A DNA stretch of 63,339 nt, counting the filler. It is 3 parts of 3 records of this genome, joined end to end, with 100 filler letters (N's around TTAATTAATTAA, not from the genome) between each part and the next. Parts side by side here need not be neighbours in the genome. Positions count along the whole stretch, not along the records: positions 1 to 31,718 come from SRR2962707_667; 2 more parts are not named here. The stretch is one strand, 5' to 3'. Every line of letters begins with the position of its first letter. Positions within the stretch are counted from its first letter, which is position 1. The position numbers and the translations under genes are program-made. The notes below the pieces were generated by a model. It ran no database searches. It was not told the DNA's origin and saw only the letters and a program-made list of their open reading frames with translations. Below are positions 2,267 to 34,900 of the stretch, in pieces.

Positions 2267-2351
2267 GCGGGGCCGGTGTTAGAGCTGCATCTCCCTGTAT
2301 TTCTTGCAATTAAATAACTTTAACGCCCTTGGTTTCCAAGCTATACTTACA

Positions 2352-2373
2352 TTTCTTGCAGTATAATAGTTTT
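2352..2373 (+). promoter_or_regulatory. Conserved promoter motif (perfect TATAAT -10) upstream of the giant gene
   Basis: TTTCTTGCAGTATAATAGTTTT; 19/22 identical to 20792-20813. Confidence 0.6.
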
Positions 2374-2382
2374 GGTGAGCAA

Positions 2383-5300
2383 ATGGCGACCGACATTAAT
2401 GTTTCCGGAAAGTTTCTAGCCAGTCGAACAGTTGCGACAAGCTTGGAACAGGCAGAGTTTCGGCGGCTTGAACCTCGCCTGTTGCGTCTGGCTGGGGTTT
2501 CGAATGCCCTCATCACGCCAAGTCTGACCAAACAGCTCGAAAGATACAGGGACTTACAGGATCTTCTTGGCCACAGCGCATTGCCCGGCACCGGCCCCGT
2601 TTGGCGTATGCCTGATAGCACGCCTGTGTTTTCCACTGGAGCGGCAGATCCTTCATCTGCGCAAGAAAAGAACTCTGACCGCTTTGTTATCGCCCCGGGA
2701 CGTTCTGTGCGCGCATGGCGGTCTGCTGACTTCATTGATGTTGGGATTTTTGAAAACGGCAAGCCCACCGGTCATGCATGGCGGGTACATGAGGCCGAGT
2801 GGCCCCGCAGTCCCGTCGATCAGATAGCTCTGCTTTCTCTCACAACCGGCGTTGTTCATGATGACATCGTCATTGATCGCGCGCGTATGGCGGTTAATGA
2901 CATTTCTCGCGGGTCCGAAGGACACATCACCGACTGGTCGGTGAAACTGGATTTATCAGACCCCGCGCTTCTTAAGACTGTGGCGCCTAAGACCGATGCT
3001 GCAATGGATGCCTTGAAAGCTCAGCAGGCTTACTTCTCAACCACCCAGCCAGATTGGGCAATGTCATCTGAACAATATCTGGATAGATTTGTAATTGTTC
3101 CTCTCGAAGGAGAAGCTGAACTAGAGCTTCGCGAAATCGCTGGACGCAACCTTGCTCAAGCTGAACACTCCGATTTGAAAGGCGAGTTTACCGTTTTTCA
3201 AGACATCGACAGCCCAGAAACGCTGATAGCGTATCGAAAACGCTGGTTTTTAGACCAAAAAGGGCCCGTGCCGATTGCCGTCCGTCACAATGGCATGCTG
3301 CATGTTTTCGATGGTGAGACCCACCAGCTTGATGCCGCGGCGAAGAACTTTGGCAATATCAGAGCCTACAGTAATGCGTGCGAAAGCAGTCTCCTTTCAG
3401 GGCATCGGGAAATCATTCGCACTGCACTTGAGAAGAAACTGCCCGTACCGGCCGAAGTCCTTGAAGAATATCCAGCTCTTCGTCGCATGCAGTCTCCGAA
3501 TTTGGCCGGGGATCAACGCCCAGTCCCCGAGTTTGGTCCTGAAGAAGATATGATCACCGTCTCTACTCATGACGATCGTGACGACATTTTTGCCAATTTG
3601 CTCGATGAAGAACGCGAGGGCATGCAAGATGATTTTTATCTTCAGCAGCACTTTTACGACGAAGCGAAAAGGCGGGCAATTCAGGCATACCCTGACGAAT
3701 ACTACAGATCCGATGGCGATATCCTAGAGATCGCTGAGAGTGCTCCGTATGCAGACCGGGTGGTCGCAGAGACAGAGGCGGAGTTTCGCAGTGACAAAGG
3801 TCTCGATGGTAAGGCCGAAATCACCGATGATATGGCTGAAGAACTCTCAGATTTGATTACAGACGCCCTGATCGAACATTGCAAAGACGACGCAACGGAC
3901 GACCCGGATCACGATATCTGGAAATGGCAAGACCCATCGGACTCATATACGGCTTTCGAAGACGACGACATCATGGAGACCGTTTTCGAGCTGGAGTATG
4001 AACATGCGCTGAAAGAAGTTGAAGAGGCTGTTCAGCACATGTCCATCATTACTGGGCAGGACGACGACGAAATCGTCGACTACAGTATCCTCCGTAATGA
4101 AGATAATGACTATCATCTCTACGAAGACCTCAACTCTAATTATCAAGCCACACATCTTGGTGACTTTCCCACCTTTGACGAAGCGACTGAAGCGGCCCGT
4201 CAGCATGCCCGATACGGAGAGATCCGGCGCACCTGGCCTATAAATGAAGGGCGGCCAAATACCAAATGGTTGCGCTCGAACTCAGAAACCAAAAAAATCG
4301 CCATCGCCACTGGATCAGGGTTTGATCGTTGGTGCAAACCGGCGTGGCTCCGTGGGAGTTTCGCAATTGTTGCGCCCTTCAAGGGCCGCCCCGGTTTTCA
4401 GGCCCATCACCTTCCGACCGGTCTTCCCGTCGGCCGGGTATGGGGGACGGATCAGGAAGCAAAGCGATTTGTCGATCTTCTTGCTCCAATACGAAATTGG
4501 GGTGAGCTTCGGTCTTCAGAAATTGATGACGTTCGTGATTTGGTGGTTTCGCTCGAGCATCAGGCCGGCGTTGAGGCAACAGAAACCCGGCAAGTTATCA
4601 GAACTCAAAATCGCAACCAGCGTCTATCACGCGCCCCTGCCCCCAGCATCGGCTTTGGGGGCCCGGTCGCCTTTTCAGCCAACATGCTTGATGTCACTCC
4701 GCCACGTTTTGAGATCGACAGATACAGTGCCTTCAAACCGCGCGATGAAGACCGTAACTGGTTTGTGGCGCGCATGCGTGAAAGCGCATTCGAGACGTCG
4801 ATTGCCGAAGACTTTTTCGACGCGCACATTGAAACCTACCAACCTGGCCGGGAAACAATGCGCCAATGGGCTGCCGCGACACATTGGCAGTGGCACACCA
4901 TGCCGGAAAAAGAGAAGTCCAATCTTCTCGATCACATGTCTGACGACGAAGACATCAAAGCTCAGTTGATCTTTACAGATATGGCAGACGAATTTGAGGC
5001 GCATATCAACAACCTGGTCGATGTGGAACTCAGCCATTATGCCAACGCAGTTGTCCTCGAAGACACTACAGGACAGGGATATCGGGTATTCTTCGATCCA
5101 GACAGCCCATCAACGATGGAGGTCTTCGCCCCGGGGCCGATCAGCGAAGGCACATTTCTCGGCTATGCCCGTGGTGAAGACACTCTAGAAACAATTTCGG
5201 ACGCCGAGGAAATAGCCGGTCAATATGCATTCCGTGGTCTGCGGGCAATTGACGGGGGCGGTCTGTTCAAGGAAATGAACCCCAAAGGCCCGGAAGAATG

Positions 5301-8300
5301 GCGCTCTCGCGTGATCATTCTTTCGGAAAACACCCCGTGTGTTTCCCGACTGGCCCACGGGTTTGCCCAAAAAAGCTTTGGCATTGTCCGCACCGACTGG
5401 CATCTCGGCGAAAAGCAGCCCGGGGCGGCCGTCATCCACCTTGCCAGCGGTACGCCGATCAAGCCCTTCTTCCGGCGTGACAAGGATGCGCAGGCGTTCG
5501 CGGACCTGATTGAAATGCAAGCAGACTGGCACGCGATTGTCAGTCATGAAGACTTCGCACGTGAAAGCGCAAACCTGCGATCCATTGCCCGAGATACCAG
5601 TGCGGCAATCAAGGAAGTATCGCGTGCGGAACTTAAACGGCCGTCGCGAAAACCACAGGGTTTGGATAACGCATTTGCCGGGGCCGTGGCCTTCAAGGTA
5701 ATGCCTGCGGAGAAACATGAGCGTGAGATTTACAAACTCATTGATGACGCGGATCCCTCCCGGCGCATAAGTGATAAGTGGGAAGATTTTCTGACATTGG
5801 CTTCTTGTGCGCACCGTGGTGCTGCATTGCCGCAAGATAGTGATGCATGGCGCGAGAACGAAAGTCGCTATCTTGATGTTGTCGATCGTTATCGCAGAAA
5901 CAAACGCCTTTCGGACATTCGAGAGAATTTTCCGAACGCGCTTGGCCATTTGACAGCGGCGTGTCGGCAGTATGAAGACGATACTTTGGGCCGGTTGCAC
6001 ATGCAAATCGCGCCAAATAGCGCTCTTGGTCAAGAATTCACGCCATACGAAATGGCGCTGCTGATGACGGAGCTCACCAGCAGCACTCTTGAAGCTGAGA
6101 AGATGCAACAACTCAATAGCGGAAAAGGGTTTGTTGAGTTTTCAGATCCTACAAGTGGATCTGGCGTGATGGCGATTGCACAGGCAGAAAGCCTCCTTCG
6201 GAAACACTTGGATCCAACGAAGCATATGCGTGCATATCTGACCGATATCGATCATCGCGCCTGCGATATGTCATATCTGAACATGGCGCTGCGCGATATC
6301 CCTGCACTTGTCACCCATGGCAATACACTGACACAAGAGATTCACTCTCAGAGCATGACCCCCGCTTTCGTGCGGGCGCGTTATGAAGACATAATCAAGG
6401 ACAGGAAGGCGGTAAACAGTCGCGACATCCAGGAAAGTGGACTGCTTGACCCCAAATTCTCAACCGGGCGCGATTATCGCACCCTGTCAGAAAGCCTGGT
6501 TCACCTTGGCGCAGGTCCAGACCTTCTCGACCACACATTTGTTCCGTCCAACGATCCGGCCAAAGGTGTACCGGGCGAATATTCACGGCTGCAGGATGTA
6601 AAAGAACTTCTCTGGCAGGCCAACCTTGTTTTTGATCAAGCCGAGAAGTTCGGGCTGTCCGAACCCCATCCAGAACGCAGCAGTATGGCTCCTCATAAGC
6701 TTTATGACAGTTACCATAGAGAGCTTGGCGCGCGGGTCGGATCATTCCTTGAAAACCTCGACATTGCTCATCCCACTACAGTTAGACAAGCGCAACCACT
6801 TTTGGACGAAGTTGCTGAACACGTCAAAATGTTTGATGCTTATGTCGACGCTTACGGCGCCCCCGGAACCAACTATGAGGCACTCACCACGCCGCGTTGG
6901 AAAGTCGCTGATCAGATGCCTGTGTTTGGCGATCTGGATGAATTGCGCGTTTCGGAAGCGGATATTCCCGATGACGATGCGATCTACAGCAAGTTGGAAG
7001 AGCTTTACCCCTTCTATGAAAGACAAGTGAAAGCTGAATATCTGTCGCGTTTTGGAAAGGACTTCATCATCGATGATGTCTATATCCAGAATCTTGCGAA
7101 AGACAGAAAGGATGACGGGATTGCAAAGCTTATTGCCAAGGCAAGCCCGGCAACCGAAGACGCGATAGAAGCTGCTTCATTTGGAATCGTTGCTGATGAA
7201 ATGAGATCGAAAGGTCTGCGTACAGGAGACACGGATGAGCGTGAATTGGTGCGTGTCCACGGCGATTCCATTGCTGCCACAGCTGAAGAACGTGCCCGGG
7301 AAGTGGCGTTTAACGAACTTATGCAGGAAGCCCCAGTTTCGATCCGTGACAAGGATGGGATTGGGTATGAAATTCGGAATGTTCCAGAGGACGGAGCCTT
7401 TGTTCTAAACTACCACAACACCCCCATCGTCTCGGCTCATTCCTTTAAAGAAGCCCAGACACTGGCCATCGCACATGCGCAAGCCGCAGATATCGACATG
7501 TTGCGTAATCCAGACGTTGCGCTCAACCCGCTCGGCCCCGCTGACCGGTTTATCCGGCGTGATACCGTGTATCATGCTGGACCTGTGGTCACATCCGATA
7601 TCCACTCTGTCGGAAGGCTTGTGGATCCTGTCGTTCGCGGGCATTTTGCGGTTTCGCGCAGCCTTCAGTCCAAGCCTGGCTGGTATATCACTCATCTGCC
7701 TTCAGGCTTTTCATGTGTGGCCCTCGCCCAGCGATTTGCATCCGAAGAAGCCGCACGCAACTGCGTCGTCGAACTTGAAAAGATGGGCAGCTGGGACATC
7801 ACGCGGCGCGATGTCCGCGAATGGACCAACAATCCTTCCAATCAGGACATGCGGCGTGCATGTTTTGAACTTATCGAAAGCCACATTGAAAATTCTATTG
7901 ATGCCGCCAAACAAGGTCGGGTTGAAAACAGGCTGCATGACAGCAAAACGACACGTGGCCGCATTTCAGGCCCGGTTGCCTTCAAAACTGAAATCTCAAG
8001 TGGATTAATCCCATCTGACGAACAACGGTTGAGCGACGCGATCGGAACCTACCTTCAAAACGGACACGTTTTTTCGTCAGCACGGGCCTTAAGGACGTTT
8101 TGCGAAGACACTCTTGGGTTTCCGATACCACAACGGCACGCTCTCAGACGGGCTGTTGAGGAGGTTGGCGAACGTGCAATGGTCCGTTTGGCCGCTGGCA
8201 TCTACAAAAGTCATACCGGATCTTCTGGCGAACTGATCGACAAGCTTGCCAAGTTGCAAGACCAGTTACCCAACTTTTCAACAAGAACGTCCCGGTCTGC

Positions 8301-11300
8301 GGAACTTCAGGCCTATTCTACCCCGCTTCCGATCGCGGGACTTGCCGCCCGCCTTTTGGGCGCAAAGCCTGGTGAAGTAACCTACGATCCAACGGCAGGA
8401 AATGGTGCGCTTCTTATCGGACAGGACCGTGAGGACCGCAAAGCCAATGAGCTCGACAGCTCAAGAGCCCGCGGGCTGGATGCCAAGTATGTAACGACAC
8501 TTGATGCCGCGCAGGGGCGTCCACCCGGCGCACATCAGCACCTTATTGCCAATCCCCCGTTTGGGGCCTTGAGCGAAGAGCAAGGAAAAACCCTGTTTCT
8601 TGCGTCTGAGGGGGTGTCGGCTGAAAAACGAACCAATCCGCGAGCTGTCGCGACATCGCGCTTGCATCACGCCATTGTCTGGAACGGTCTCACGGGTTTG
8701 CCCGATCATGGCCGTGCCGTGCTGATCTTGCCTTCTGTGCGGGCCCATTCAGATGAAGCGCGCGAACAAGGCTACGACCAGGCTGGACTGCGTCGTTTCC
8801 ACTGGAAGCTCTACGACAGCTTCAATGTTGTCGATCACATCACCCTTTCTGGCGACCTTTACCGACAACAAGGGGCGGGCTGGCCCATCGATCTCATTGT
8901 GATCGATGGCAAGGGCCGCTCTTCAATGCCTCTGCCCACGCTTTCGACGCCGCCTGTTATCACCTCGCTTGAAGAGCTCAAGGAGATTTGTCATGTCTTC
9001 GATGCCAACCGGAATCAACTGGATCCACGAACTTCCCTATCAGCCAGCGCAAAGCTTTACGCCAGCGGAAAAACCGCTGTTCGGAACGACGGTATTTCCG
9101 AGCGCGACCAAGTCAGTGACACCGCGAATTTATCAGACCGCGATCCAGTACAAACTGGCGGCGATCGAGAAAGCTCAACCGGGCGCGCTGGAGCGGATTA
9201 TCGCCTGTCTGCCAGTGGATCACCTGAGTCCGGATCCGGTGGCAATGATCCACAACATCGATTTTCTGACCTGGCTGCACCCACTGACCTGGACACTTCC
9301 CGCCTCCCCTCAGACGGAAATCCCGGTGGAACAGAAACTGCTGGATCTGGACGCCCTGATGCTGGAGATCGGAGCATGAACGAAAGCCTTGTCCCTTACG
9401 AGCCTCTTTCGGAAGCCAAGCCGCTTGAAACATTAATGCCCGCAAACCTTGTGTCCAGCTTCGATGCCGCAAAAGCGCGCTTGGTGTCTGCGGTCGGTAA
9501 TGTTGATGACTTTGTTCAGGAAAAGCTTGGTTACAAAACAAAGGAGGCGCTTTACAACGCCTTGGCGGGTGAACAGATTGATGCGACAGCGTTCGCAATT
9601 CATCAGCACGAAACCGGTGGATCCTTTATCAATGGTCACTTGATGGGGATCGGAAAAGGCCGGGTTGCTTCAGCCATGCTGGTGTATGCCCATCTCAATG
9701 GGTTAACCCCGATTTTCATCACAGAACGTCCGAACCTTTACCCTGCAATCATGCGTGATCTTGCCGATATCGGCTATGGCCATCTGCGACCGTTGATCAC
9801 AAACGACGGATTGACAGGTGCTCAAGCGCTGGAGTTGCCAGACGGCCGTGTTCTCTCCACACCCAACAAAGCCAAGCATGATGCTGAACTGATCCGTATC
9901 CGTGATCAGGGGCATCTGGGCAAAGACTACGACTTTGTCATGACCAGTTGGGCACAGACCCAAACAGTCCAGGGGCATGAAACCCTTCGGCGCATGTTGC
10001 TTGAGCGGCTCAGCAAGAACGCACTGCTGGTGCGTGATGAAAGCCATAATGCCGGCGGACAGGATCAGCTCTTCTCGCAACCAGGCCCCCCCAACCGCGC
10101 TGAGTTTGCCCGGGAACTTATGTGGGATGCCAAAGGTGTCTACGATAGCTCAGCAACCTGGGCAAAAGCACCACATACTATGGATTTGTTTGGCCGCACG
10201 GATCTGCGCTACGCTGTTCGCGATCCTAAAGAGATCGGATCAATCATCGCCCAACATGGATTGCCGATGCAACAAATGGTGGCTTCGATGCTTTCGGAGT
10301 CCGGCCAGTACATGCGTCTCGAACGATCAATGGAGGGTATTGATTATGAGTTCTCTGTGGTCAATATCGATCCGAAGAGATTCGACAAGTTCGCAGAGAT
10401 CCTTGAAGCGATCGCCGCCTTTGACGACGCAAAACAAGGACTGTTAAAAGGGCCACTTGGCAAAGAGCTTAAAGAATCCGGCGAGAAAGCCATGAGTGAT
10501 GGGGCGACCGGCGAAGTTGGGATCAACTCTATCATCTTCACCTCTTTGCTCCATAATATCGCCCAACAGGCTGAATTGTCACTCATGGCCGATACGGTCG
10601 CAGACAAAGCAATTCAATCGCTTGAAAACGGCCAAAAGCCATTCATTACTCTTGCCAACACCATGGGTGCTTTTATGTCCGAGTTTGTCTCGGCCAATGA
10701 ATTGCAGCCTGGCGACGCGATCGATGCGAACTTTGGCGACGTTCTTAAGCGCTATCTTGAGCGATCTCGGGATGTCACGATCGGAACGCCTTTTTCCGAA
10801 AAGGAACGTATTCATTTAACCGATGAACAACTCGGTTCACGCGCCAAAGCACTGTTCGACCGGGTTGAAAAGCTGATCGAAGATGCCGACTGGTCCGGAA
10901 TGCCTGTTAGCCCGATTGACCATGTAAAAGGGCGCCTCGAGCAGGCTGGTTATAAGTTTGGTGAGTTTACGGGGCGCTCTGAAGGGATCGATTATAGCGG
11001 TGATCGGCCAGTTTACTATCGTCGCACTGCAGCAGAACGATCAAAAGCAGCTGATGTGCGCACCGAAACTGCCTTCAATGATGGATCGATCGATGTCGCC
11101 GTTGGCAATGAAAGTGTCGCAAGCGGAATTACGCTATCGGCCAACGCGAATTTTGCAGATCAACGACCTCGACTTGACATCACATGGCAGCCTCACCCGG
11201 ATGTGACCAAGCACGTTCAAATGAAAGGCCGGGTTAATCGGACTGGTCAGGTGCATACACCAAGCTACCTCCATTTGATGACCGATATCCCTGCATCACG

Positions 11301-14300
11301 GCGTAATGCAGCTCGGCTTGAGCGCAAGTTACGCTCCTTGAATGCCAATACAACAGCAAACCAGAAAGGGCTATTCCAGTCTGGCGGGATCGACATGCTC
11401 AATGCCATCGGCGATCGGGCTGCGGCAACCGTGATGGAAAATAATCCAGCGATCCATCGTCGGTTTGGTTTTCCCCTTAAACTGGCCTCTGGCGCCCGCG
11501 GCCTCGAGACCGATGGGGCTGCCCGCAAAGTGACGGGCCGAATGATCATGTTGCCTGTCGCGCTGCAAGAGAAACTCTATGGCGAATTCGAAACCGAATT
11601 TCGTGCCGAGCAGGAAAAAGCCGAGCGTATGGGTCTCATCCGTGATGAAGCGCGGGTGCATGATTTGGATGCGAGGGAACTTTCGCGCGCACAGCTGACA
11701 AAGTCGGTAAGGGCCGAATCACCCTTCGGCGGACCTGTCCACATCAAGCAGATGAATGTCCGCAACACCGAAAAGCCCTATCCGTTCGCCCGGGTTCTTG
11801 CCGAGATCAACAAGAGCCTAGGATTGGGTGACGGAACCGTTCTTTCTGACACGCAGAGCAACGGTCGGGAGCACGCCAAAGCACTCAAGGAGCGGGCCAA
11901 GGAACAGTTTGAACGCTACAGGTCCGCCTCGGTAGAACGGGCCAGCTCTCGAAACAAGCAATCAGTTGAAACGCGATTGACGGGTGACTTTGAGAGATTT
12001 ACCAAACTCGTCGATAACTTCCCTGTTGGCCGTTCAGTCCTTCTCAAAACACCTGACGGCAAAGATATATACGGGGTTGTCGCCGGACTGTCCAAACGTG
12101 GCGGTTCCGTCAATCCGGTAGCGCCGGCCGCCTGGACAATCAAAATGTTTGTCGCCGATGGTGCCAAGGAAATTGAACTGAGGCTCAATGAACTGGCGTT
12201 GCCCGGCGAAAAGCCAATGTCAAAGGACTATACTTTGATCAAGGCTGACAAAGCCGCAATTGATGTAGAGGGCACACTGGAAGTGCGCCCGATTGCAGAA
12301 GCCTTTGACCGGCCCTCAAAAAACGATCGTGAAGAACGTCTTGTTGCCACAGGCAACATTCTGGCTGCAGCGGACCAGTTCCGAAAAGCCAATGTCATGT
12401 ATTTCACGACAACCCAGGGCACCATCGAGGCAGGTTTATTGCTGCCCCGTGATGCAACACTTCAAGAGGTTCTTGGACGGGCCGAAGTCATCCTAAGCAA
12501 ACCCGAACATGTCCAAAAATACCTTGAGGCCAAGGGCACGGCCGTCACGGCCGACAATGCGCTGTCAATCGTCAAGCGAAAGGACACTATCGAACTTCGC
12601 GCCAGTCGAGCCAGATCAGCGGGCGGGAAATACTGGCTTGATAAGGACATCCGTGGCCTTACAGGAGATTTTGTCTCAAGCGGAACATCAATGGTCGCTG
12701 AGATAAAGCCTGCCCAATTGTCATCTCTTCTTTCCCTGATGGAAGGCAAGAGAATGACCCTCAAGGCATCTGATATACTTGATGATGCGCGAGAAATTGT
12801 TGGCGCTCAGGTTCCTGAAATGGTCAAACGAGGTCCTCCAAAACATTCATCTGCCAAACCGATGGATCGGTTTGTCATGCCATGGGAACTCCGCGGCGAG
12901 GAAGCTGCCCCCTTTGCTGCCGGTATTCAATTCTCTACCGGGCGTCCTGTCGCATTACGCGAAGAGGAGGCTGGAGCTTTGGTTCCTGTCAACCATCAGG
13001 GCGCACCAGGACCACAGGCGGACGGCTCACGTATTCATCGCGTGCTTGATGTTCCAGATTATGTTTCAGCAGACCAACTGCTTGCAAAAATGCATCTGGA
13101 TGGAGAACAGGGAAAATATGTCCATCGCTTCAGCAATGTCTTCTATTCAACCGGCAGCAATGACACCGGTCTGACCGTCTATAACGACGACGAAGTCAAA
13201 GATCTTCCCCCACACCACGACTATGAGACGTGGCAAATGCGTCGGGGTGCGGCGCCGAATGGCTGGGACACCGTTGACGTTCCCTTGCTGTCGCCCAATG
13301 GGCCGGTCAGGTATCCGGGCTTTGTCCATCCCGAAGCACCAGGTTTGGCAGTTGTCCCCTTCCCTCGCCCGGGGCTGCGTCCAGGGACTTATGACAGGGA
13401 TGCCTTACGCTTTGTTGTTCTTCATAAGGAGAGCGGGCAAGCGCTGCTCCCAGGCAACCGGTTCATGTACACTGCCAATGGTGCGGCAAAAGCCGCGCTG
13501 ACGATGGCAAACGCCTTTGATTTTAAAAATCTTCAAGCTCCGGACGATATGAGCCGGGCAGAGCGGGCACATGCCAACAAAGTTGTCGACGACAGCTACG
13601 AGAACGCAAGGAGCACTGACCGGGACGCTTACATTGAGTTCAATCTCAACCAGGGTGTCACAGCGGAGTTTCGAGAGTCCGACCTCTACTGGCTAGTTGT
13701 CGATAACGCAGCTGATCCTGACATCGATCTTGCCGCTGAGATGTCGCAGACGTCCGGGTGTTTTTATCTCTACCCGGATCGCGACACGGCGATCGATATC
13801 GGCATGGAAGATGCAGCACCTGTTCGGGCGAAATTGCGCAACATTGCAGATCTTACGCAAGAACCATGGTCAGCGGATGTTCAGGAGATAACCAGGGCCT
13901 TTTTCGATCAACACGTCGACATGCTTAAGATGGGTCTGTCGACGACCTATTTCGAGCGCGGGTCGGAATTCGAGGAAGTCGAGCGGCGCGTTGAGGCCGG
14001 TGAAGATGAAGATGCGGTCCTGAACGAGTTTGTTGAACGCCGCTTAAGTGAATTTGACTACGCTGCCTTCGAAGAAGCAATCCGTCGGCAAGACTATACC
14101 TCAGCCGGCGCTTATGATGGAGATCTCAAAGATGCCCTCATGGGCTGGCTGTCAGACAAATTCGACGGTGTTAAACTTTGGGAACCGTTTGAATACGATC
14201 AGACGGAACTTGTCATCTTCAATGCCCGCGATGTCGAACTGGCCTGGGATCAACTTACTACCTCTATTGAACTGGCTCGCGCCCAAAAGGCAGAACAGGA

Positions 14301-17300
14301 AGCCCGGCGCGAAGAATGGCAAAAACAACGCAGTGAAGATGAAGTTGCGCGGCTTGCGCAATGGCGCCTGGATGAAACCGAAAGCTTTGACCTGGCGGTT
14401 CTTCAAGAACGCGGGTTTAACGTCAATGATATCCATTGGCTCTCTGTTCCAAACAAAGAGTATCCGGAACTTGATCAAGCCTACGCCGGGGTGAACCCTG
14501 TCCTGTTCACCCGTAGAACCGACGCAGAAAGTCTTGGTCGCTTTGATGAAGCAATCCCGGTCTATCTGCGCCGCGGTCAAGGTGTTGATCTAACAAGCGA
14601 CAACGCCAGTGCGCGGGCCTTTATCGAGCAGCTTTCACAAATCCCGGGTTTAGATACGGCCGGTCTAGCAAATCTTCCGGGCGGCGACATCGGGCCGCTT
14701 GCCCAGGCTGCCACCGATCTCGCTCGGGCCAAAGGTCTGGATTACATCCAGTTCCTTGATGAAGGTACCAAGCGGTCTGTGTTGAGCGATACGTCAGACA
14801 TTTCAGTAGCCTGGGATGCGATCGAACGCAAAAGCATTCACCGTCGTTCAAGTGACACGATGGTCGGCCCTGCACTTGCAGCAGCCAAGCAGGCTGCGGC
14901 ACTGGCTGCCCCTCGCTTGCTGCTGACAGGACCTGAAGGTCGGGCAGATGCCGAAATGGCCGCGCGGTCTACCAGCATTTTCCTCCAGGCAGATGAAGTC
15001 CGCCGCTTGGCCGGAAATGACGCTTTACTGATCTTTGTTGAGAACGACACAGCTCAACTGTTCGATCGCGATGCCAAGCGCGCGCACCAGATGATCGACG
15101 GATTGCCGCTCGTCGAGATTGGCGACATTGCCGAAATGGAGTTGCCGGCACGTGACGCAAATTCTGTTGCAGAACAGCTCGCACCAAAACATCGGGTGGT
15201 CATTGCCAGGCTCGACGAAAACGGCCAGATCGTTCTGGAAAACTTTGTCGGCAACCATGTTGAGCTCGAAACACTCACAGCCGAAGATGCCGACGATCCA
15301 ACTGTCCGGGCAGAACGCGAGAAAAAGCGCGCCCGTCAACGTGCCGGCACTTGGGCGGAAAAACCAATTGCTGATCGATATGCCGATGTTCATCTTGCAG
15401 CACGTAATCGCGAAGTTCCGGCCCTTGTTGATGGCGATCGATATGTGATCGCCGGGCTGCTCGCGCGCCAACTCAGTGATGAAGTCCCTCTTCTCAAAGA
15501 GAACCTTCAGAGCGACGGAGAACTGACCTGGTTTAGCCAAAAGGATCTGGCGACGGTCACATCCTCACTGGCAGCTCTTGATAAGCGATTAATGCTGGCT
15601 GAAGGCCTGAGCCGTGCGACATGGCGCCAATCGCGTGTCGGGGCGGCACAGGAAAGCCAGACACGTGAAGAAGTGACGGCTCAAAGCGCTATTGAACAGC
15701 ATGCCGAGCTCGCAAATCGTCATCCCGACCGGGTGGTCTTTGTTGAGGATGGTGAAGGCTTTCGAACTTTCTCGGACAATGTGCAGACAATCGCCAAGAT
15801 TGATCCGCATCTGACCAGCAAGTTCGAGAAAGTGCATGACACGCCCTCTATCGCGCTTACGCGTGACGAGATGGACTACCAGGCCAAGCAAATGTCTCAA
15901 CGTGGGTTGCATGTCACGATTGCAGAACGGGCTCAGGACGGTTCTGTTTCCCTTCGCAACTTTGACCCTATGACAGAAGTTGTAAACGAAAGCGACGTTA
16001 CGAGTGCAATTAGCGGCCAAAATAAGGAAGCTGTAACATCCGAGCGCAAGCATACCTTAACAGAACAGGACCGCGAAGCGGCCAGCTCGACTGCTACCGC
16101 AAACGCCCTGCACGATGTCGTTCGGAGTTTTGATGAACAGAAAAGCATTAACCGCGAAGCCGTGCATCTGATTGAGCACGGCGATGGATATGTGCTGTTT
16201 GATGGCGATGCCCGTTTGGTCGCCCGTCACTTTGAACCCGTTCGCAATCGTCTGGAATATTTTACCGACAGCATGGAGCGAACCCGCATTGTTGGGCACC
16301 TCAGCGCGAATGTACTGGAGCGAGCCATTGAGCAGCTGCGCAATCGCTCTGTCGACCTGGTTGTCATGAAACGGGGGGGTGACGGATTTCTTGCCGAGGC
16401 ACATGGGGCAACACGCCACCAACCGGAATACCCTGCGGTCCAGAAAGACGCCGCGGCGAGACGTGGTTTCGATCTTTCAAAGAAATCCTATGCCCCTGTC
16501 AGCGGTTCCGGAGCGTTCATGGGCAAGCCCCTTGTTGATGGCGTTGCTTTTTATTCAGATCCGGTCGCGGCGGGCAGCAATCAGATTGAAGTCCATACAC
16601 GGGTCAAGAACCCGGCACGCCTGAACAGTACGGATTTAAACAGCTTTGGCTGGCGGGCGCCTCTTCAGAAGATGGTCGACAACCTGAAACAAGCCTATGG
16701 CATTGAAAGTGCCGAACAGCTGAAGCAAATCCTATCAGATGGACGGATGGTCAGCTGGTGGACTGATCGCTTAAGCGAAATGGCCATCGGTGGGGATCCG
16801 ATGGATCTGCAACGCAGTGTCTTTAACGAATTGCGCAAACTAGGCCATGACGGGGCGATTATGATTGATCCCGATGGCTATGAAGTGAATTACGCATTTG
16901 ATCCTGAGGCAATCCTCCCCGCCCAGACGGTCCAAGCTGTCTCGGTGACACAGCAGCAGACGGCGAACATCCCGCGTAGCGCTCAGTCTGCCGGCATGCC
17001 TAACACAATTGGACAGTCTGCGGCTCCCTTCACACCAAACCGCTTTGGGCTTGAGGGGTTACAAGTTTCGGTACAAGCCGCACCGCAAAGTCGCGAGGAA
17101 CTTAAAAGTGCGCTTGATGAGATCACCCGTGCGTTTGACACCGACGGCGGTACCGCTGACAAGCGTGCAGCTTACCTTCGTGAGGTGGGTTTGCTTAATG
17201 TCAGTCTTGCCGGGCGGATAAGTCGCTATACGGAAGATATCTATCCAATTTTACCAGGCTATGTGATCTATCCGGGTGACAATGGTAAGTGGGTCTATGC

Positions 17301-20300
17301 CTCGGTGAGAGACTTTGTTTCAGCCACAGGACCAACGGGAAATCTATATGGTCGCTGGGCACCTGAAATGTCGGATCAGATTTCTGACTATGCAGCTTTT
17401 TATCTGAACCAGCTTGATGCAGCTTTTGAGCCTCAACTTGCCCGGGTTAAGGAAGAGCTGACCGATATGGTATCGGAAATTAATCCGGATGTTGATTTGC
17501 GTTTTGTCGAACGCCTTTTTGCCGATGGTACGGTAGAAGGCAGCCCTGACCGCAGGCCAGTGCTCGGCCTTTACTTCCGACACACAGATGCCATGCCTAT
17601 TTCAACTGACATCAGCAAAGGTGATCCCAGGGTTACGGGCCTGCATGAGCTCTATCACTCCCTTTCTCCATTGCTGAACCCTGAGGAGCACAGAGTAGTG
17701 TCCGCTGGCTTTGGCGGGGAAGAGAAAGCTGCGGAGGCATTTGCTCACTGGGCTATGGGAACTGCGGAAGGGCGTCGTCTTGGCCCAATCCAAAATCTGT
17801 ATCAAAGGATGAATAACATTTTGCACGGAAACGGCTTCCGCTCCTGGCAGGATGTATTTCAGGCCGCGCGGGTGGGAGAAGTTGCTGGCCGGGCAAAAGT
17901 TCTTGAAATGTCGTCAGATATCGAGATTGCAACGGCTCAAAAGTTGGCGAATGCCGCGAACCTGCCTGCGCTGGGTGAAGCCGTATCACGGTATGGAGCA
18001 AGACTTGAGGGTAAAACGATTCCAATGGAGACGCTTTACCAGTTGCTGGCCGGTCATCTGGATGATCTTGAAATCACCCAGGCTGTGAGAAAAGCCGGGT
18101 TCCATCGGATCAATGACGATCAGAGTATTTCGACAATTCCTGCTACACGCCATGCGACCATCGAAATGGATCTGGCAAGACACCGCAAGTTAACACCGAT
18201 CGATATCGGCTCAAACGACCCTCACATTGCTCGTCGCATCTCCCAGACCACGCAAGCTCAAGCGCGACGTGTAAATGCATCCGTGCATCCTTCACCTTCA
18301 ATTCAACGCCGTGCGGACCGCCCTCATGTTATTCGTTACAAGGCTGTGGATGGCGAAATCTTGCAAAACAACATTCCAGCGCGTACATCTAGTAACGCTC
18401 CAGTTCGATCCATGATAAAAGACATTGTGTTGCAAGAGAGATATGGACTTCCCACATTGAAGTCATCAGAATATTTGCAACGTAACCCTTTTATTGCTAG
18501 ATACGGTGACACTGGAATGAGTGAACAGGTAGCAGGACAGGAAATCCAGATTCCAATGGCAACACGTGGCTCTGCCGATATTATCGATGAGACAGCACGT
18601 CCGGTGTACATCCTGCCGGACGATATGGATCGTCTCGTTGATGCTGGAATTGTCGGTGAAGGTGATAAAGGCCTTCTTTTTGATGCGACATCAGGGGCAT
18701 ATTATGTTGCTCTGAGCCATCCTTCGATTGATCATCTGCTCGAGAATTTTGGCACGGTCCAAGCCCAGCAGCTATGGTCCAGACATAAGCAAGATCAGGC
18801 AGAAGTTTTTTCGCAGGTCGCCAAAGAATTCTCAACGATCGCCTATCCAGTGCCCGAAACTGAACGTGTATATGTCTTTCCAATCGGGGCCAGCGAAGTC
18901 CAGATGGCGCGATCCAAGGGGGCTCAATTTGATGACCGTCCAGATTTTCGGATCTATTACATTGACCGCAATTCCGAAAACGCCCAGAACCTTATCGACC
19001 GTTTTGGCCCGACTGGCGAGCGGATAGACCGTTACAAGGATTGGCGCAAGGAACAATTCGGCGAGAATATCCAGCGTCGTTCTGTTGCCATTTCAGACAG
19101 TGCCGCTATGGACGGTGAATTGGGGCACGATGCGGTTAAACAGATCGGGCGTTCAGCTGTGTTCAGCGCCGGCTTGGGGGGTGCAATTGCTGCATCAACT
19201 CAGGTCGCTGCCAGCACGCCAACCCCTTCAGCATCTGTCCTCAGTGCAACTGCGCCTGAAGAAGGCTCAATCGAAATGATGTTTGAGCGTCTGGGAACGG
19301 CTGAGTGGCGTGAAATCATTGATAAGAGTTCACTTGCAAACTCTGCTGCGGAGGTTTGGTCCTCACTGTCATCGACAACTCAAGAGGCGCTTAGCCGGGC
19401 AGGCATTGCAGGCGAGCGGGCAAGCCATCAGTTCGCTGAGGCCTTTGCCGACATTGGCAATAGTCTGGCACAATATTCGACGCTTACGGAACGGGTTACC
19501 TCTTCGGGTTCACTGGATGAAGCACGGGCACATATTGTTTCGTTCTTCGCCAATGGCCAGCAGAATATCGACGCTGGCAACTTCTTTGAAGCCTTGATCC
19601 AGAGCGAAGAACCGATTGAGCGCCTTGAGACCCTGAAGGCCGTCGCATATAACACCGGAAACTCAATTAAGGATTGGGCTTCTGACAGCTTGGGGTCGAT
19701 CACTTCAGGTGATTTTCCCGACGTGCAAGAATTTGCTCCAGGTCTTTCTGAATTGCGGACCTCGACTGTTGAAAGCGCCCTGCCACATATGAAGGCGCAG
19801 ATTGCGTCAACATTTGACGGATGGGTTCAGACGGCAAAAGAAGTGAGCAAGCCTGCCGTCGATGTGATGCGCGAAGCGATTGGTCCAAAAGTAACAGCGG
19901 CCGTTTCTGCGATCGGTGGGACAGCTGGGCTAACAGCAATTGCGGGTGCAGCGGCATCTGCAGGTGCGGTTGGTGCCGGTGTGGCGGCTTCCGTCTACAT
20001 GGCGCGTCGCAACGAACGCCGAAAAATCTGGGCTGAAGACTCCAGGGATATGCCCTGGAAGCTGACATCCAAACAGTTCGGCCAGGTTGCCAAGAAGCAT
20101 TACAGCATTGCGCGCTCCGAAGCCGACGGTATCGACCGGATCAGTATCACGCGGAAAAGCGATGGCCAGAAGGTATATGAGGCTGCCGCACCAATTGGTG
20201 GCAAGCTTTCTGCCCGCGAAGCTGTTGCGGCTGCCCATGCTTCGCTTGTTGATAAAGCGATCTCCAGCAACCTGCCTGTACCGGATGCCGTGAAGATAAG

Positions 20301-23964: not shown

Positions 23965-25221
23965 TTAGCGAACAGATTTCAGGTCAGACCATCTTGTGGT
24001 GTAGCAAGGTGATCGCGTGCTCGATGTTGTGAACCAGTCCAAACCGTCTGCGTGCGCAACACGGCCGACGGTAACTGTTTCCTTGCCAAATCTCTTGTCG
24101 AGTTGGTCAAGGGCCTCCATGAGCGGGTTTTCGCAAAGGCAGGAAGCCGTAAACAAATCTCTTGGAGCATCCGCAGGCGGACACAAATCCAAAAGCAAAA
24201 TACCTGCCTTTTTTACCGACAATCCGTCTCGCCAGAGTGTGTCCAGTTTCTTCGAGATGGCTGCACCGATGAGCCGTGTATCATTGGTGGCTGGTGTTAA
24301 ATCGATCTCACATCCAAGAGAAAATTGGGGCTGATCTGTGCGGAACCTGTTGCTTAAAATGAAAAGCTCAAGTCCGCAGGCAACCAGATCCTGACGGCGC
24401 AATTTTGAGCATGCCCTGCTCACAAAGCTAAAAACGGCATCTCGAAGCACTTCCCTGTCTGTTATCTCCGTTCCGAAGGATCGTGAGACGCATATCGTTT
24501 TGCGTGGAGCGGGGCTATCATCAAGATCAATGCAGATAACGCCCTTCAATTCACGAACGGTTTTCAGCCCGTCAACAGTCATTATCTTGCGGGCGACCTG
24601 ATCGGGCATATCACGCAGATGCCGGGCCGTCACAATGCCCATGCCCGACAGCTTCCGGGCATATTTACGGCCGACACCCCAAACATCACCAACTTCTGTG
24701 CGCTCAAGCGCAATGTCTATCCATCTCTGGTCATTGAGAACCAGGACCCCGTTAGCTTTACCGGATTTTTTGGCCAGCTTGTTTGCAATCTTCGCCAGGG
24801 TTTTGGTTTTCGATATACCAATGCCCACCGGGATTCCGGTTTCACGCAGTATGCGGGATTTCAGATTGCGCGCCCAGGCAACTGGGTCGAAGCTCATGCC
24901 GGCAAGGTCGATGAATATCTCGTCAATCGAGTATATTTCACTCTCGGCAACCTCGGATGCCACGACCGCCATAACGCGCCGGCTAATGTCGCCATACAAA
25001 GCATAGTTGCTCGACTTTACGATAACGCCGTGTTGTTCGACCAGATCGCGGATCTGGAACAATGGTTGTCCCATCTTGATGCCAAGAGCCTTGGCTTCAT
25101 TGCTCCGTGCAATGGCGCACCCGTTATTGCTGAGAACAATAACCGGCTTATTGTGCAGTGCCGGGTCGAACAACCGCTCGCAGCTCGCGAAGAAGTTATT
25201 GCAATCGACCAGCCCGATCAT
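23965..25221 (-). CDS. umuC: Y-family DNA polymerase V subunit UmuC
   Basis: LVDCNNFFASCER, VLSNNGCAIARSNEAK, YSIDE, SRSFG and C-terminal SPCYTTRWSDL. Confidence 0.95.
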   Translation of the reverse strand: MIGLVDCNNFFASCERLFDPALHNKPVIVLSNNGCAIARSNEAKALGIKMGQPLFQIRDLVEQHGVIVKSSNYALYGDISRRVMAVVASEVAESEIYSIDEIFIDLAGMSFDPVAWARNLKSRILRETGIPVGIGISKTKTLAKIANKLAKKSGKANGVLVLNDQRWIDIALERTEVGDVWGVGRKYARKLSGMGIVTARHLRDMPDQVARKIMTVDGLKTVRELKGVICIDLDDSPAPRKTICVSRSFGTEITDREVLRDAVFSFVSRACSKLRRQDLVACGLELFILSNRFRTDQPQFSLGCEIDLTPATNDTRLIGAAISKKLDTLWRDGLSVKKAGILLLDLCPPADAPRDLFTASCLCENPLMEALDQLDKRFGKETVTVGRVAHADGLDWFTTSSTRSPCYTTRWSDLKSVR

Positions 25222-25740: not shown

Positions 25741-26715
25741 TTATATCGGCAATCCGGCCTGTCGCATCATCTGCCCCAGTTCCTGGGTCCGTTCGGAATC
25801 CAGGTGTCCTTTCAGGAACTTGCGCATTTCCGGAAGCCGGGTATCGAATTGCTCCGCCAGTGTCTTGGCATTGTATCCAAGCCGTGCCAGTCGGGCATCC
25901 AGATCGTCATAGCCGATCGCAATTGTTTCTTCGACAATTTCCCGGGTGACAGGCTTGGCGCCAAGCTTGTAGGCTTCGGTGAAAGCGCGTGTCAGATGTT
26001 CGGTAAACTGAAGCGGTGTTGACAGGCGCTCGACCATCAGATCCAGCGCATCGTCCGCAATAATGTCTCCTTGCCTAGTGTTTTTGGTCCGGCACTGCTT
26101 CAGCAGCCAGTCGAGATATTTGCGACTGTCATCGCCAAGCCCCTGAAACATGATCTTGGTGGTTCTATGCCCGATCTCTTCCATTGTCGCCTTGTTCAGA
26201 TCATTCCGCAGGCGGGGATGGCCAACCAGAACGACAGACAGAACCCCGTCCCCTGCCTGGACAATTTCCATCAGACGCTTGAGACCGGTCAGCGTGTTTC
26301 CATGCAGGTCATGAGCTTCGTCGATGAACAGAACGACGGTTTTTCTCATTTTCCTGATGAGGTCCTGAAGTTTGCGTTCCCGCTTTTCGGGTTGTGTCGG
26401 CACTTTGACATCCGCATCACCGGAGACATCGAGAAAGATTGCGGTCAGAAGGGCTGGCAGAACAACACGCGGTTTGTCGATCGACAGGCTGCGGGCCACG
26501 AGAATATCTTTGCTTGCGGACAACTCTGTCTGAAGCCTGTTTAGCATCATGGTTTTTCCGACACCAACTGATCCTGTGATGGCAACCAGCCGACCGGCCA
26601 GAATGGCCGCCCGCAGGTCGGCCATCATCTGGCGGTGCCATTCCGTTTCGAAAAAACCGGCCAGCGCCCAGTCCTTCTCGATGCCATAAAATGCCCTGAC
26701 ATCCGCTGTTAGCAT
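25741..26715 (-). CDS. ExeA/TniB-like AAA+ transposition ATPase
   Basis: Walker A GSVGVGKT, Walker B VLFIDEAH, VVLVGHP; GGAGG RBS; lies downstream of the transposase. Confidence 0.9.
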   Translation of the reverse strand: MLTADVRAFYGIEKDWALAGFFETEWHRQMMADLRAAILAGRLVAITGSVGVGKTMMLNRLQTELSASKDILVARSLSIDKPRVVLPALLTAIFLDVSGDADVKVPTQPEKRERKLQDLIRKMRKTVVLFIDEAHDLHGNTLTGLKRLMEIVQAGDGVLSVVLVGHPRLRNDLNKATMEEIGHRTTKIMFQGLGDDSRKYLDWLLKQCRTKNTRQGDIIADDALDLMVERLSTPLQFTEHLTRAFTEAYKLGAKPVTREIVEETIAIGYDDLDARLARLGYNAKTLAEQFDTRLPEMRKFLKGHLDSERTQELGQMMRQAGLPI

Positions 26716-31916: not shown

Positions 31917-34900
31917 CGGTCCTGAGCAGTCGGTTGCTCAGACTCTGCGTCGCCGACTGAAGCCGCTACACACTTGGCTTCGCCGGGTTGTTGACGGATT
32001 GGCGGGCTTAGCAGCAAAGTTTGCCGCCGTAATCATATACGGACCGCCGGTGTCCGACCTTGAGAGGCGTCTGGAACCATTCATGTGCAGTGATTTCTTG
32101 TGCGACCCAGAAGGTATGTTTGCAGGCTTCCACGTGCAGACTGCTGAGTTTTTTTGGAGGGCAGTGCCTGCTGTGTGCCTCAATGTTTGACTCTTTGCGC
32201 TGCACGTCTGCAGGCCTTGCGACCGCTGTTCGCTTTCGACATGTGACACATGGGGACGACGTAACGGCGCGCGAAACAGCGGCGGCTGGTTTTGGAAGTG
32301 TAGCTGACATTGGGAAAGTTCTGCATTGGCGCGAGGACGGACCAACGCTTCACCTTGGAGACAATATTGCCGTGCGCATCCCTGAGGGTGCAGTCCCGAC
32401 TGCAGGGTTGCAGGCCCGCTCCACCACACCAAGCCGCGATCACAAGGATGGTACTGCCGATTCCGCCGAAAAGCCCTTGCCAACCACGCCTGTCTCACTG
32501 AGCCGGGCTCGCTCAAACCGACAGTCTTCAGCGTTTGGTGTCTCTGACGAACCCGCTTCCATATCACCCAGTGAAATGCGCACCTCGTCCAAGGGACGCG
32601 CGTCGCGAAGTCGAAACCGATCGCGCAGTCGTGCCACGCGCAGAGGAATGGCAGTCTCGTCTGAGCACGACGACGATTCTGCACCCGCTTCGCCATTCGT
32701 GTCGTCCGGGCGACCTCCCCGTAGTTCAGTCGGTCAAAGTTCGTCACCCGGACTCAAGCCAGTGCAACTCTTCAAACGCGAAGGAGTGGAAGTTGCGAAT
32801 GGGGTTTCCCGCACCGCCGGGCACAATCACGCCCAGAATGCAAAGGAGCCGGCACTGCTCGCGTTTTTGCGGCAATTTTTTCTGTTTGATGCAAGGGGTG
32901 CGTCGCTAAGTGATTCGGTTGCTTCAAGAAGCGAAAGAGATGTCTCCCGATTTAGTTCAGTGGGAACGTCACCTAGGACGCCTACACGTGACGTCTCAAG
33001 CACGGTCGATGAAACCTTGCAAACGCATGATTCCGACGCTAGTTTATTGGACCAGGCTTTGCTTGGAATGGAAAAAAAATCAGCAGAATCAGACTTTACA
33101 CACCAGCAACCCTCACCGTCGGCATCATCAGTTACGGACAACTCTCGGGCCAGAGGACATTCTTCAGGTTCCACTACGCCCTCAATTCCGCTTTCACCAC
33201 AGACCAGGACCCGGACTCAGTCGCCCTGTGCTTCGCCGGGCGATGTTCCTCACAACGAGCAGTGGTCTGCGGTTCGTCGTGCTTTAACTGGAGTTCTTTT
33301 TGCTTTTGACCTATCGTGCAATGGATTGCTGGCAAGAGAGGCAATGGAGCTCGTGGCTCATTTAAAAAAGAGTGACGGTGAGTTGCGAGGCACTTCCGCA
33401 ACTGGAGCCACGAAAGGACAGAGCTCAGGCAGTCGAGCCCCCATCGGAAACAGTACCGCTGCATCTGCAGCAGCTGCCCGCCGCTCTCCATCAGCCTCGC
33501 CTGTTCGACCTGGAACAGCCTCACAGCCGCTTGGCACCAAAGGCCGGCAAACGCCCAGAAGTGCCGAGCCGAGGCCTGCAACACATCGGCTTTTGCGCAC
33601 ATGGATGACTGCCAACTCAGTCACGACTTTCTTGCGGCAATGCGCAATGAGAGCCAGTGGTGCGACTCATACCGCCGGGCACCGCAACACTACGTCGGCG
33701 GCTGGGCGACACTCAAGAAATAGCAGCCGTCTTAACACTGCTGGAAGTGACGCTTCTGTCGCTCAAGCATCGAACCGTGACAGGAGCGGCGGCGTAGTTC
33801 GAAGCCGGTCTGCCAATGCTCGCAGTGGCGGCCCTTCTTCTATCAATGACCTCCCGCAACGCATCGTGGCTAAATGCAAACTCCTCGCGGAGATTTCTGC
33901 TGCAGTTGCGTCGTCCTCGCGTTTCTCGGTTGACATGTCGGACTTTCAATCAAACAGGAGCAATGCAAACATCAATCAGCATTTGCGGAAATGGTTGCGT
34001 TCATCTGCGTTGCCATCAGACCGGTGGCAGGATTTGGAACTACTGCTTAGTGTTATGTGCGAATGGCAATCCTCACGTGACGTCGCTGGGACGGACACAG
34101 TCGTGGACCCGAAATTCGATGACGGTTCCCCTTCAAGCCCAATGCTTGGAGCTCGAGCCCCGCTCGGCGCCGTGCCTCGTGTCCGAAGCAGGGATGGAAC
34201 CAGCCCCAGCACGCCGCTGGGACGTGTCAATGGTGACGATTCGCCCACACCGTTTTCGCTCGAACCACAAATGCGCGACGCGGACGATATTTTCACAGGT
34301 TCAAGCGGCGACTGCAGTTCCGCAACGAAGCAGAAGCGGAGCATTGTTATTGAAACCATGAAGTTTCTTGATTTTCTACTCGACGACAGCGACGTTCGAT
34401 ACATCGCCCGAGTCTTAGCTTTGAAGCAACAACGCGCTCAAATTCGAGTCTCCGGGCTCACATTGTTCAGGTTCCTTTTTTGTGCTGTGTCGTCCGAGTC
34501 GTCCAAAATTGCAATCTTGGAAAATATTTCCAAACAATTGCAGGAAATGGACACTCTGGGGTTTGTCGGTGACGCTCATGGTGACGTCCCTGCGAAAGGC
34601 GAACGTGGAGGACATCGGCGGTCGGGCAGCCGCGGCAGAAGTGCAAGTTCAGACACTATTGACCGCCGTTCGGAGGACCAGCGGCATCACGAACAACTGG
34701 GCAGTGGTTATCAGCAACGCAATCATGGAGAGCGGCCTCCGGCTGGCGCTGCGAAGCCACCAACTGGCCACGTTAAAGCCAGAATCGCAAGCCAAGGCCG
34801 CGCTTCACATTCTTTTAATGTCAGCCGGACACTGAATGACTTGGCTTCGGCTCATTTGCAAGGGTGCAGTTCAAAGGCCCGGGACGCTGTCGCTTGCGCC

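Follow-up and report, generated by a model that had tools for sequence, protein, structure and literature searches.

To our knowledge, bacteria have very few long genes that are nested on the same strand within another gene and are solidly supported by comparison; comS, the textbook case, encodes only a short peptide of about 46 amino acid residues (aa). Here we describe a probable case of greater length, an open reading frame (ORF) designated X, which lies in the +1 frame inside a giant methylase-helicase gene. The gene is found in the stretch of DNA analysed in this study (hereafter, the window), which is 63,339 nucleotides (nt) in length and consists of three parts of three records of one genome joined by fillers of 100 N's; positions 1 to 31,718 come from SRR2962707_667. 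Several described systems share features with this locus. In phage phiX174, a single ORF gives a full-length protein (A), an in-frame internal-start isoform (A*), and a nested protein in another frame (B); the phage genome is small and under size pressure, and the stop of the nested gene is not known to overlap the start of the isoform. In F-like plasmids, an in-frame internal start in the gene of the large conjugative helicase TraI gives a shorter helicase isoform, TraI*, and no nested out-of-frame gene is known to stand before that start. The nearest bacterial precedent is comS, located inside srfAB in the surfactin synthetase operon of Bacillus subtilis. According to the account of comS in PMC12915044, it encodes a small protein in a distinct frame inside the giant multidomain ORF srfAB, it is co-transcribed with srfAB, and the functions of the two were separated by stop mutations silent in the host frame. 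In the part of PMC11230408 that deals with nested small proteins of Escherichia coli, such as GndA within gnd, these are given as fewer than fifty residues long.

The gene that contains X fits the methylase-helicase dyad of polyvalent proteins from conjugative elements and phages, as outlined by Iyer et al. (2017, PMC5512222), in which methylase-helicase polyvalent proteins of mobile elements are thought to serve plasmid establishment against host defences. In the main text of that paper, the words 'overlapping' and 'frameshift' do not occur (0 occurrences each), and a gene nested in the linker of the dyad is not described there. A nested gene was also unreported among the matches listed in a search for literature on strawberry notch together with an overlapping gene, a plasmid, or a polyvalent protein.

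Like comS, as that gene is presented in PMC12915044, X lies in a distinct frame within a giant multidomain ORF, and like GndA, as presented in PMC11230408, it is nested on the same strand within an annotated gene but read in another frame. However, comS is within an enzymatic module, whereas X is in an inter-domain linker, and the account of comS in PMC12915044 describes no coupled restart of the host ORF. In contrast to comS, X and its equivalents are 128-169 aa long, are found in plasmids of two phyla, and represent the better-conserved frame of the two. Unlike the A/A*/B system of phiX174, X sits in a host gene of 18 kb and of probable plasmid type, in which the overlap takes up exactly the linker. 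Unlike GndA-type peptides, X is 128 aa long, with comparative evidence across phyla. The helicase-first restart that we infer for this locus can be compared with TraI*. On the comparative evidence given below, we put at about 0.8 the probability that the +1 frame of the methylase-helicase spacer contains a true protein-coding gene, X, dual-coded with the linker. The features of the locus are as follows.

2329..20700, + strand: giant ORF of 6123 aa, polyvalent-type, with two N6-adenine methyltransferase modules, a strawberry-notch helicase, and a MutS_I-like domain
8014..8994, + strand: second methyltransferase module (aa 1896-2222, ending ...SLEELKEI), with DPTAGNG and NPPFG motifs read by eye
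8981-8985, + strand: Shine-Dalgarno (SD)-like AGGAG, with 7 nt between the motif and the ATG of X at 8993
8993..9379, + strand: putative nested gene X, +1 frame, 128 aa plus TGA, wholly within 2329..20700
8992..9375, + strand: main-frame G/S/D/R-rich linker of 128 codons, dual-coded with X, open but poorly conserved
9364-9367 and 9371-9374, + strand: two GGAG motifs upstream of the in-frame ATG at 9376, the first one 8 nt away
9376..9379, + strand: ATGA, in which the in-frame ATG of the giant ORF (9376-9378) overlaps the TGA of X (9377-9379)
9376..20700, + strand: possible helicase-first isoform of 3774 aa from M2350, by putative reinitiation at ATG 9376

A hidden overprinted gene at this place had been proposed in an earlier note on the same DNA, and the comparisons below bear the proposal out in product, length, start context, and stop, with a phase switch and a codon-usage signal confined to X. 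The elements that the note had listed were found exactly as described: AGGAG, 7 nt, and the ATG at 8993 that opens a 128-codon ORF in the +1 frame [(8993-2329) mod 3 = 1], and the TGA that overlaps the in-frame ATG at 9376, with GGAG 8 nt upstream and 3774 aa from M2350. The two compositional claims also agreed with our counts. Over the span of X, G/S/D/R make up 49% of the giant frame (28% elsewhere in the giant protein), and F/L/I/M/V/W/Y make up 13% (29% elsewhere); W/L/I/P make up 34% of the X product, compared with 19%. An alternative +1 ATG at 8906 would give a protein of 157 aa, but the starts in the relatives match the position of 8993 instead.

The arrangement of a methyltransferase upstream and a helicase downstream, which the note had described, was recovered with Pfam. 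N6_Mtase was matched at aa 1231-1344 of the giant protein (45.4 bits; cut-off, 20.4), AAA_34 at aa 2410-2685 (30.1 bits; cut-off, 27), and Helicase_C_4 from aa 2878 (51.2 bits; cut-off, 30.5). AAA_34 and Helicase_C_4 are the strawberry-notch helicase pair and lie just downstream of the nested ORF. The second methyltransferase module gave only a weak match to an NCBIfam methyltransferase. With both helicase domains above the Pfam cut-offs and N6_Mtase fused upstream, the giant gene appears to be a strawberry-notch-type methylase-helicase polyvalent protein gene, and X fills the spacer between its second methyltransferase module and its helicase.

The closest relative with available DNA was found on the plasmid NZ_CP136683.1 (L001) of Thalassospira lucentensis LC.270.F.C4, which has a 6154-aa gene that is 49% identical over the 800 aa tested. 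At the same junction, this gene contains a +1 ORF of exactly 128 aa, which is preceded by cAGGAG and ends in GCATGA on an in-frame ATG. In a gapless comparison of the window and Thalassospira, X was identical at 54 of the 128 residues (42%), compared with 31 of 128 (24%) for the main-frame linker, and the nucleotide identity over X was 53%. Mismatches at codon positions 1, 2, and 3 of X numbered 51, 50, and 79 of 128, respectively (Fisher p=0.0004, position 3 versus position 2). We then consider the whole gene, scanned in 231 windows of 100 codons for the difference between the mismatches at main-frame positions 3 and 1 (mm3-mm1). The mean was 0.239 (standard deviation, 0.093), and the minimum, -0.190, was located over X. 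Only 4 of the 231 scan windows, all at 8980-9534 and over X, had greater variability at main-frame position 1 than at position 3, whereas other scan windows of 20-30% identity retained the normal phase pattern. A test of codon usage, which uses a single gene and needs no relatives, gave a signal at the same place. When scored by the gene's own codon table, the +1 frame exceeded the main frame in 2 of 600 scan windows, with starts at 8989 and 9019; the Thalassospira gene gave 3 such windows out of 603, at the corresponding position. The comparison of relatives indicates that the ORF is conserved and that the selected frame is switched over it, and purifying selection over the overlap appears to act mainly on X, with the giant frame constrained mostly to stay open.

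The maintenance of both frames was examined by resampling the synonymous codons of one frame's protein and counting how often the other frame was open (2000 trials). Given the X protein, the probability of an open main frame was at most 0.0245 in all nine loci and at most 0.003 in eight of them (0.0005 in the window). As the main frame is open beyond chance, the read-through linker is maintained as well, and the locus shows dual coding and not three separate genes.

Further relatives of the X protein were obtained by an exhaustive HMMER search and a word-index search of metagenome proteins. They include P0003 (128 aa, 96% identical to X), P0004 (130 aa, 53%), P0005 (128 aa, 54%), P0006 (128 aa, 41%), and P0007 (95 aa, 40%). 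The alignment of X relatives has 22 invariant columns, hydrophobic positions are kept, and the replacements are conservative. No longer protein with X as an in-frame part was found among 7999 candidates, which is weak evidence. Scans of contigs from genomes and metagenomes with the X alignment gave only copies that were 96-99% identical, which fall into two groups (L002=L006 and L003=L004=L005). The alphaproteobacterial lineages with DNA are only two, the window group and Thalassospira, with G113 as an uncertain third. The expectation that standard annotation would miss X was mostly right, but metagenome gene callers had called P0003-P0014, and RefSeq calls an equivalent in Gloeobacter, as described below.

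Relatives of the host gene were found on 297 plasmid records, and the next-best plasmid matches were cyanobacterial homologues, which are about 35% identical and start with the second methyltransferase module. We studied seven cyanobacterial loci, from Gloeobacter, Chroococcidiopsis, Leptolyngbya, Acaryochloris, Synechococcus NIES-970, and Picosynechococcus PCC 7117 and PCC 7003. Each of them has a +1 ORF of 146-169 aa (from its ATG) that spans the methylase-helicase spacer and is the longest alternative-frame ORF on the + strand. These genes are lower in GC (guanine plus cytosine), and, given the main-frame protein, the probability of an open +1 frame was 0.0005-0.0255 in six of the seven loci and 0.36 in Gloeobacter. 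The seven +1 products show mutual sequence similarity. A tblastn search with the Acaryochloris +1 protein gave six records, all within strawberry-notch genes (Leptolyngbya, E=2e-9); among them was Picosynechococcus sp. PCC 7002, the plasmid of which (NC_010480.1) has an equivalent ORF. A profile of the cyanobacterial +1 products matched seven called proteins, including a RefSeq hypothetical protein of Gloeobacter.

For 10 of 11 pairs, nucleotide alignments of the ORF showed mismatches to be more frequent at main-frame position 1 than at position 3, whereas in both flanks position 3 was the most variable in all 11. For example, the mismatch at main-frame positions 1, 2, and 3 between L010 and L012 was 0.33/0.16/0.15 in the ORF and 0.10/0.04/0.37 in the flanks. 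Identity was higher in the alternative frame than in the main frame in 9 of the 11 pairs. Whole-locus scans of six cyanobacterial pairs gave flipped windows solely over X in four pairs, six windows in each.

In RefSeq, the Gloeobacter equivalent is a separate hypothetical protein of 149 aa, with an ATGA overlap with a helicase coding sequence (CDS) that starts at that ATG; the main frame is open throughout, despite this split annotation. At this locus of the plasmid, Gloeobacter morelensis pGMOR1 (L007; 2971-4381), no gene is listed over the methylase part, though a single frame without stops runs from 2971 across the helicase, which is at odds with how the other homologues are annotated. The Acaryochloris marina S15 plasmid (NZ_CP064924.1) has two matching places both in the search with the host gene and in the tblastn search, so the methylase-X-helicase junction may be present there twice.

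Start and stop signals were compared in 10 loci, namely the window, Thalassospira, the seven cyanobacterial loci, and G113. An SD-like motif (AGGAG, GAGGA, or AGGAA) is located 7-10 nt before the ATG of X in all 10. The motif is kept though the main-frame residues there differ (KE, QE, EE, or RG), which indicates selection on the nucleotides. With respect to the stop of X, an in-frame ATG is found at -1 to +29 nt in 8 of the 10 loci, and a GTG in one. Of the three features that the earlier note had proposed to look for in homologues, the ATGA overlap (-1) is present in the window, Thalassospira, and Gloeobacter only, and the open +1 frame and the SD-like motif are present in all 10 loci. In five cyanobacterial loci the ATG is at +17 to +29, and in Acaryochloris a GTG preceded by GAGGA is at +29. 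In the two relatives without X that were examined, from Yersinia and Pseudomonas, the +1 frames were shorter or not protein-like, and there was no Met at the place of the restart. The conservation of both contexts, start and stop, speaks for internal initiation of X; it supports reinitiation into a helicase-first isoform less firmly, and for this part the proposal of the earlier note stands in weakened form, as the eight loci with ATG and one with GTG are accompanied by one with neither.

X and its equivalents had no significant family in Pfam, NCBIfam, or PHROGs. A PADLOC search gave no match (best E about 0.03, for one cyanobacterial protein), and the best match against sequence profiles of the PDB, at E=0.25, was not significant. 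Thus, no antitoxin or defence family was matched in Pfam, NCBIfam, PHROGs, or PADLOC, and the best structural Z score of X was 3.1; the roles that the earlier note had suggested, of a regulator, chaperone, or antitoxin, are neither supported nor refuted by these results. The best AlphaFold2 model of X, built on six sequences, had a predicted local distance difference test score (pLDDT) of 90.0 and a predicted template modelling score (pTM) of 0.85. It consists of a strand (18-22), a helix (28-31), a strand (33-36), a long helix (44-61), and then five helices. The model of the cyanobacterial protein (pLDDT 80.6, pTM 0.81) has a strand at 17-19, a strand at 32-34, and a long helix at 43-63, and the first secondary-structure elements are in the same order in both models. 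Foldseek gave no match to the PDB for either model at E up to 0.001. The wide VIA-align search gave best Z scores at noise level (the 3.1 of the alphaproteobacterial model, and 3.7 for the cyanobacterial model), and the best score in the ESM Atlas, 0.80, was under the lead level. X is probably a folded small protein, and the 384 nt of the overlap would thus specify both this protein and a low-complexity linker of the giant one.

We propose that ribosomes on the giant mRNA would begin X at its conserved internal SD-ATG and terminate at the TGA of the ATGA, and that some of them would reinitiate at the overlapping in-frame ATG at 9376. This would give the 3774-aa helicase-first isoform beside the full-length protein and X, that is, three products from one ORF. 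Translation of X is likely, and production of the restart isoform is slightly favoured. A scan of 8400-9700 for sigma-70-like promoters found none, and the consensus may not fit the source organism. That X works with the helicase or with the methylase dyad is a tentative guess. The predicted complex of X, the methylase module, and the N-terminal part of the helicase scored 0.00 when run without alignments, which is evidence neither way.

Several observations weigh against the reading of X as a conserved nested gene. The +1 ORF of G113 is unlike the others, and the first start codon after its stop does not come before +65. The pair L007/L008 showed no excess of identity in the alternative frame, and position 1 was not above position 3; when aligned by their main frame, the two cyanobacterial pairs that diverge most gave no flipped windows. 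Comparison of the alphaproteobacterial and cyanobacterial X profiles by hhalign gave E=0.026, then 0.0089 with more sequences, at a probability of 4.5%. Four of the five AlphaFold2 models of X were poor (pLDDT 49.9-56.6). The near-identical copies gave mixed results: of eight substitutions within X in L002, three are silent only in the main frame, three only in X, and two in neither, and of three in L003, one is silent only in the main frame and two only in X. These substitutions are too few for a test of selection. The sole hint of RNA is a 151-nt metatranscriptome contig at 9396-9546, downstream of X; a 247-nt contig at 9084-9330, within X, is from what is probably a DNA library and is uninformative on the expression of X.

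The openness of the +1 frame itself can be explained by composition. Given the main-frame protein, the probability of an open +1 frame was 0.34 in the window and 0.60 in Thalassospira, as well as the 0.36 of Gloeobacter, because the linker is hydrophilic and has few codons with T at position 2 (F/L/I/M/V content, 12% versus 25% in the rest of the giant protein). The giant gene has 63 alternative-frame ORFs of at least 80 codons, many of which give significant tblastn matches in the Thalassospira homologue, since the main frame is conserved between the two. Accordingly, the tblastn match of X in Thalassospira (E=1e-17), the outcome of a check that the earlier note had put forward, is not evidence on its own. 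The open +1 frame alone is not beyond chance in the window, and it is the comparative signal that exceeds chance. It is very improbable that the ORF is an artefact of composition that yields nothing functional, as this would leave unexplained the better conservation of the +1 product (54 versus 31 residues), the phase switch in 4 of 231 scan windows, the codon-usage signal in 2 of 600, the conserved length, SD-ATG, and stop, and the low probabilities of openness in six cyanobacterial loci. There is almost no likelihood that the conservation is at the nucleotide level, as an RNA structure or a DNA site, and concerns neither protein: the substitutions show a three-base periodicity in the +1 phase, the overall nucleotide identity is just 53%, and the replacements in X are conservative, with hydrophobic positions kept. 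Paired frameshift errors in assembly were ruled out, as the same arrangement is present in independent complete plasmids.

Frameshifting to +1 can be promoted by SD-like motifs, prfB being an example, and the frame here switches exactly at a domain boundary, with the stop of X overlapping a start codon. A +1 frameshift near 8993 could therefore produce a fusion of the methylase part and X that ends at 9379, with the helicase made by reinitiation or with X as a transframe domain. However, the 10 start contexts, read by eye, share no slippery sequence before the ATG, the ATG at proper SD spacing in all of them is needless for a frameshift, and the main frame, which stays open from end to end of the linker (P at most 0.0245, nine of nine loci), would be purposeless if ribosomes left it; we regard a frameshift as improbable. 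The remaining alternative accepts X as a real nested gene and takes the ATG at 9376 as merely an internal methionine, with no isoform and no coupling. The lack of a start codon near the stop of X in G113 is consistent with it, as is the position of the cyanobacterial ATG, 17-29 nt past the stop and not overlapping it. Nevertheless, an ATG is at the equivalent place in 8 of the 10 loci, and the GTG of one more encodes Val in the read-through and yet is a start codon. SD-like purines are present upstream of the restart codon in several loci, both of the X-less relatives examined lack a Met there, and the NCBI Prokaryotic Genome Annotation Pipeline (PGAP) begins the Gloeobacter helicase CDS at the equivalent ATG. 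An internal methionine without coupling thus seems doubtful to us, and we prefer a nested gene with a putative coupled restart.

A common origin of the alphaproteobacterial and cyanobacterial X is likely from their position, frame, boundaries, and secondary structure, and the two profiles are colinear over 97 columns, although the sequence homology is weak. The likely origin of X is that a hydrophilic linker already in place was overprinted, since linkers of this kind readily keep +1 free of stops (P=0.3-0.6). Overprinting is also more economical than insertion of a gene followed by re-fusion, because the two X-less relatives examined are already fused as methylase-linker-helicase, and because the -1 frame of a gene that is already there seldom stays open along its length (P at most 0.0245). 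In a fuller scenario, which we hold tentatively and at somewhat less than even odds, X arose de novo by overprinting a disordered linker, gained a fold, and took selective control before the split of the alphaproteobacterial and cyanobacterial plasmids; the host frame would then have become a tether of 'anything but stop', and the stop of X would have been recruited for the helicase-first isoform.

Other parts of the window showed additional features. In the N-terminal third of the giant protein (window about 4200-8000), three copies of a motif of about 45 aa, G.FA(I/V)...G(R/K)PG....HLP(T/S)G..., were read by eye; each is followed 60-90 aa later by a G(P/A)VAF(K/S) motif, and this resembles a repeated module. 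Deep in the C-terminal half, at aa about 4454-4540 (window about 15690-15950), there is a match to MutS domain I (E=1.6e-09), a mismatch-binding-type domain that is unusual inside a methylase-helicase polyvalent protein. Just downstream of the giant gene are genes for a UmuC/ImpB-type translesion polymerase (23968-25221, - strand) and an AAA_22 ATPase (25744-26715, - strand). Among the 10 neighbour genes scanned, none was a transfer or conjugation gene. Only 2 of the 401 genomes covered by a class-level search carried the host-gene segment, so the family is rare. Two ORFs of the window, 50731-52113 and 52407-56795 (+ strand), matched VPS13_N in Pfam (E=9.5e-35 and 1.5e-07, respectively), a family of eukaryotic-type bridge lipid-transfer proteins. 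Further large ORFs are located at 32060-38362, 38325-43703, and 43534-47130. In L017 (G113:C5:263487-268178; 62% GC), one frame of the antisense strand has no stop in any of the locus's 1564 codons, an unusually long open frame.

X would thus be a protein of 128-169 aa with a confident best model, conserved in plasmids of Alphaproteobacteria and with a positional equivalent in Cyanobacteria. Picosynechococcus sp. PCC 7002 carries an equivalent ORF and is genetically tractable; thus, the idea of a nested gene is directly testable. Our finding suggests that what is annotated as a disordered linker can be a real gene read out of frame, that selection can favour a nested frame over its host frame, and that one ORF may yield three products. 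A new accessory protein of the methylase-helicase machines may bear on how they work. If the overprinting origin is true, the linkers of giant polyvalent proteins would be a nursery of new genes overlooked by annotation.

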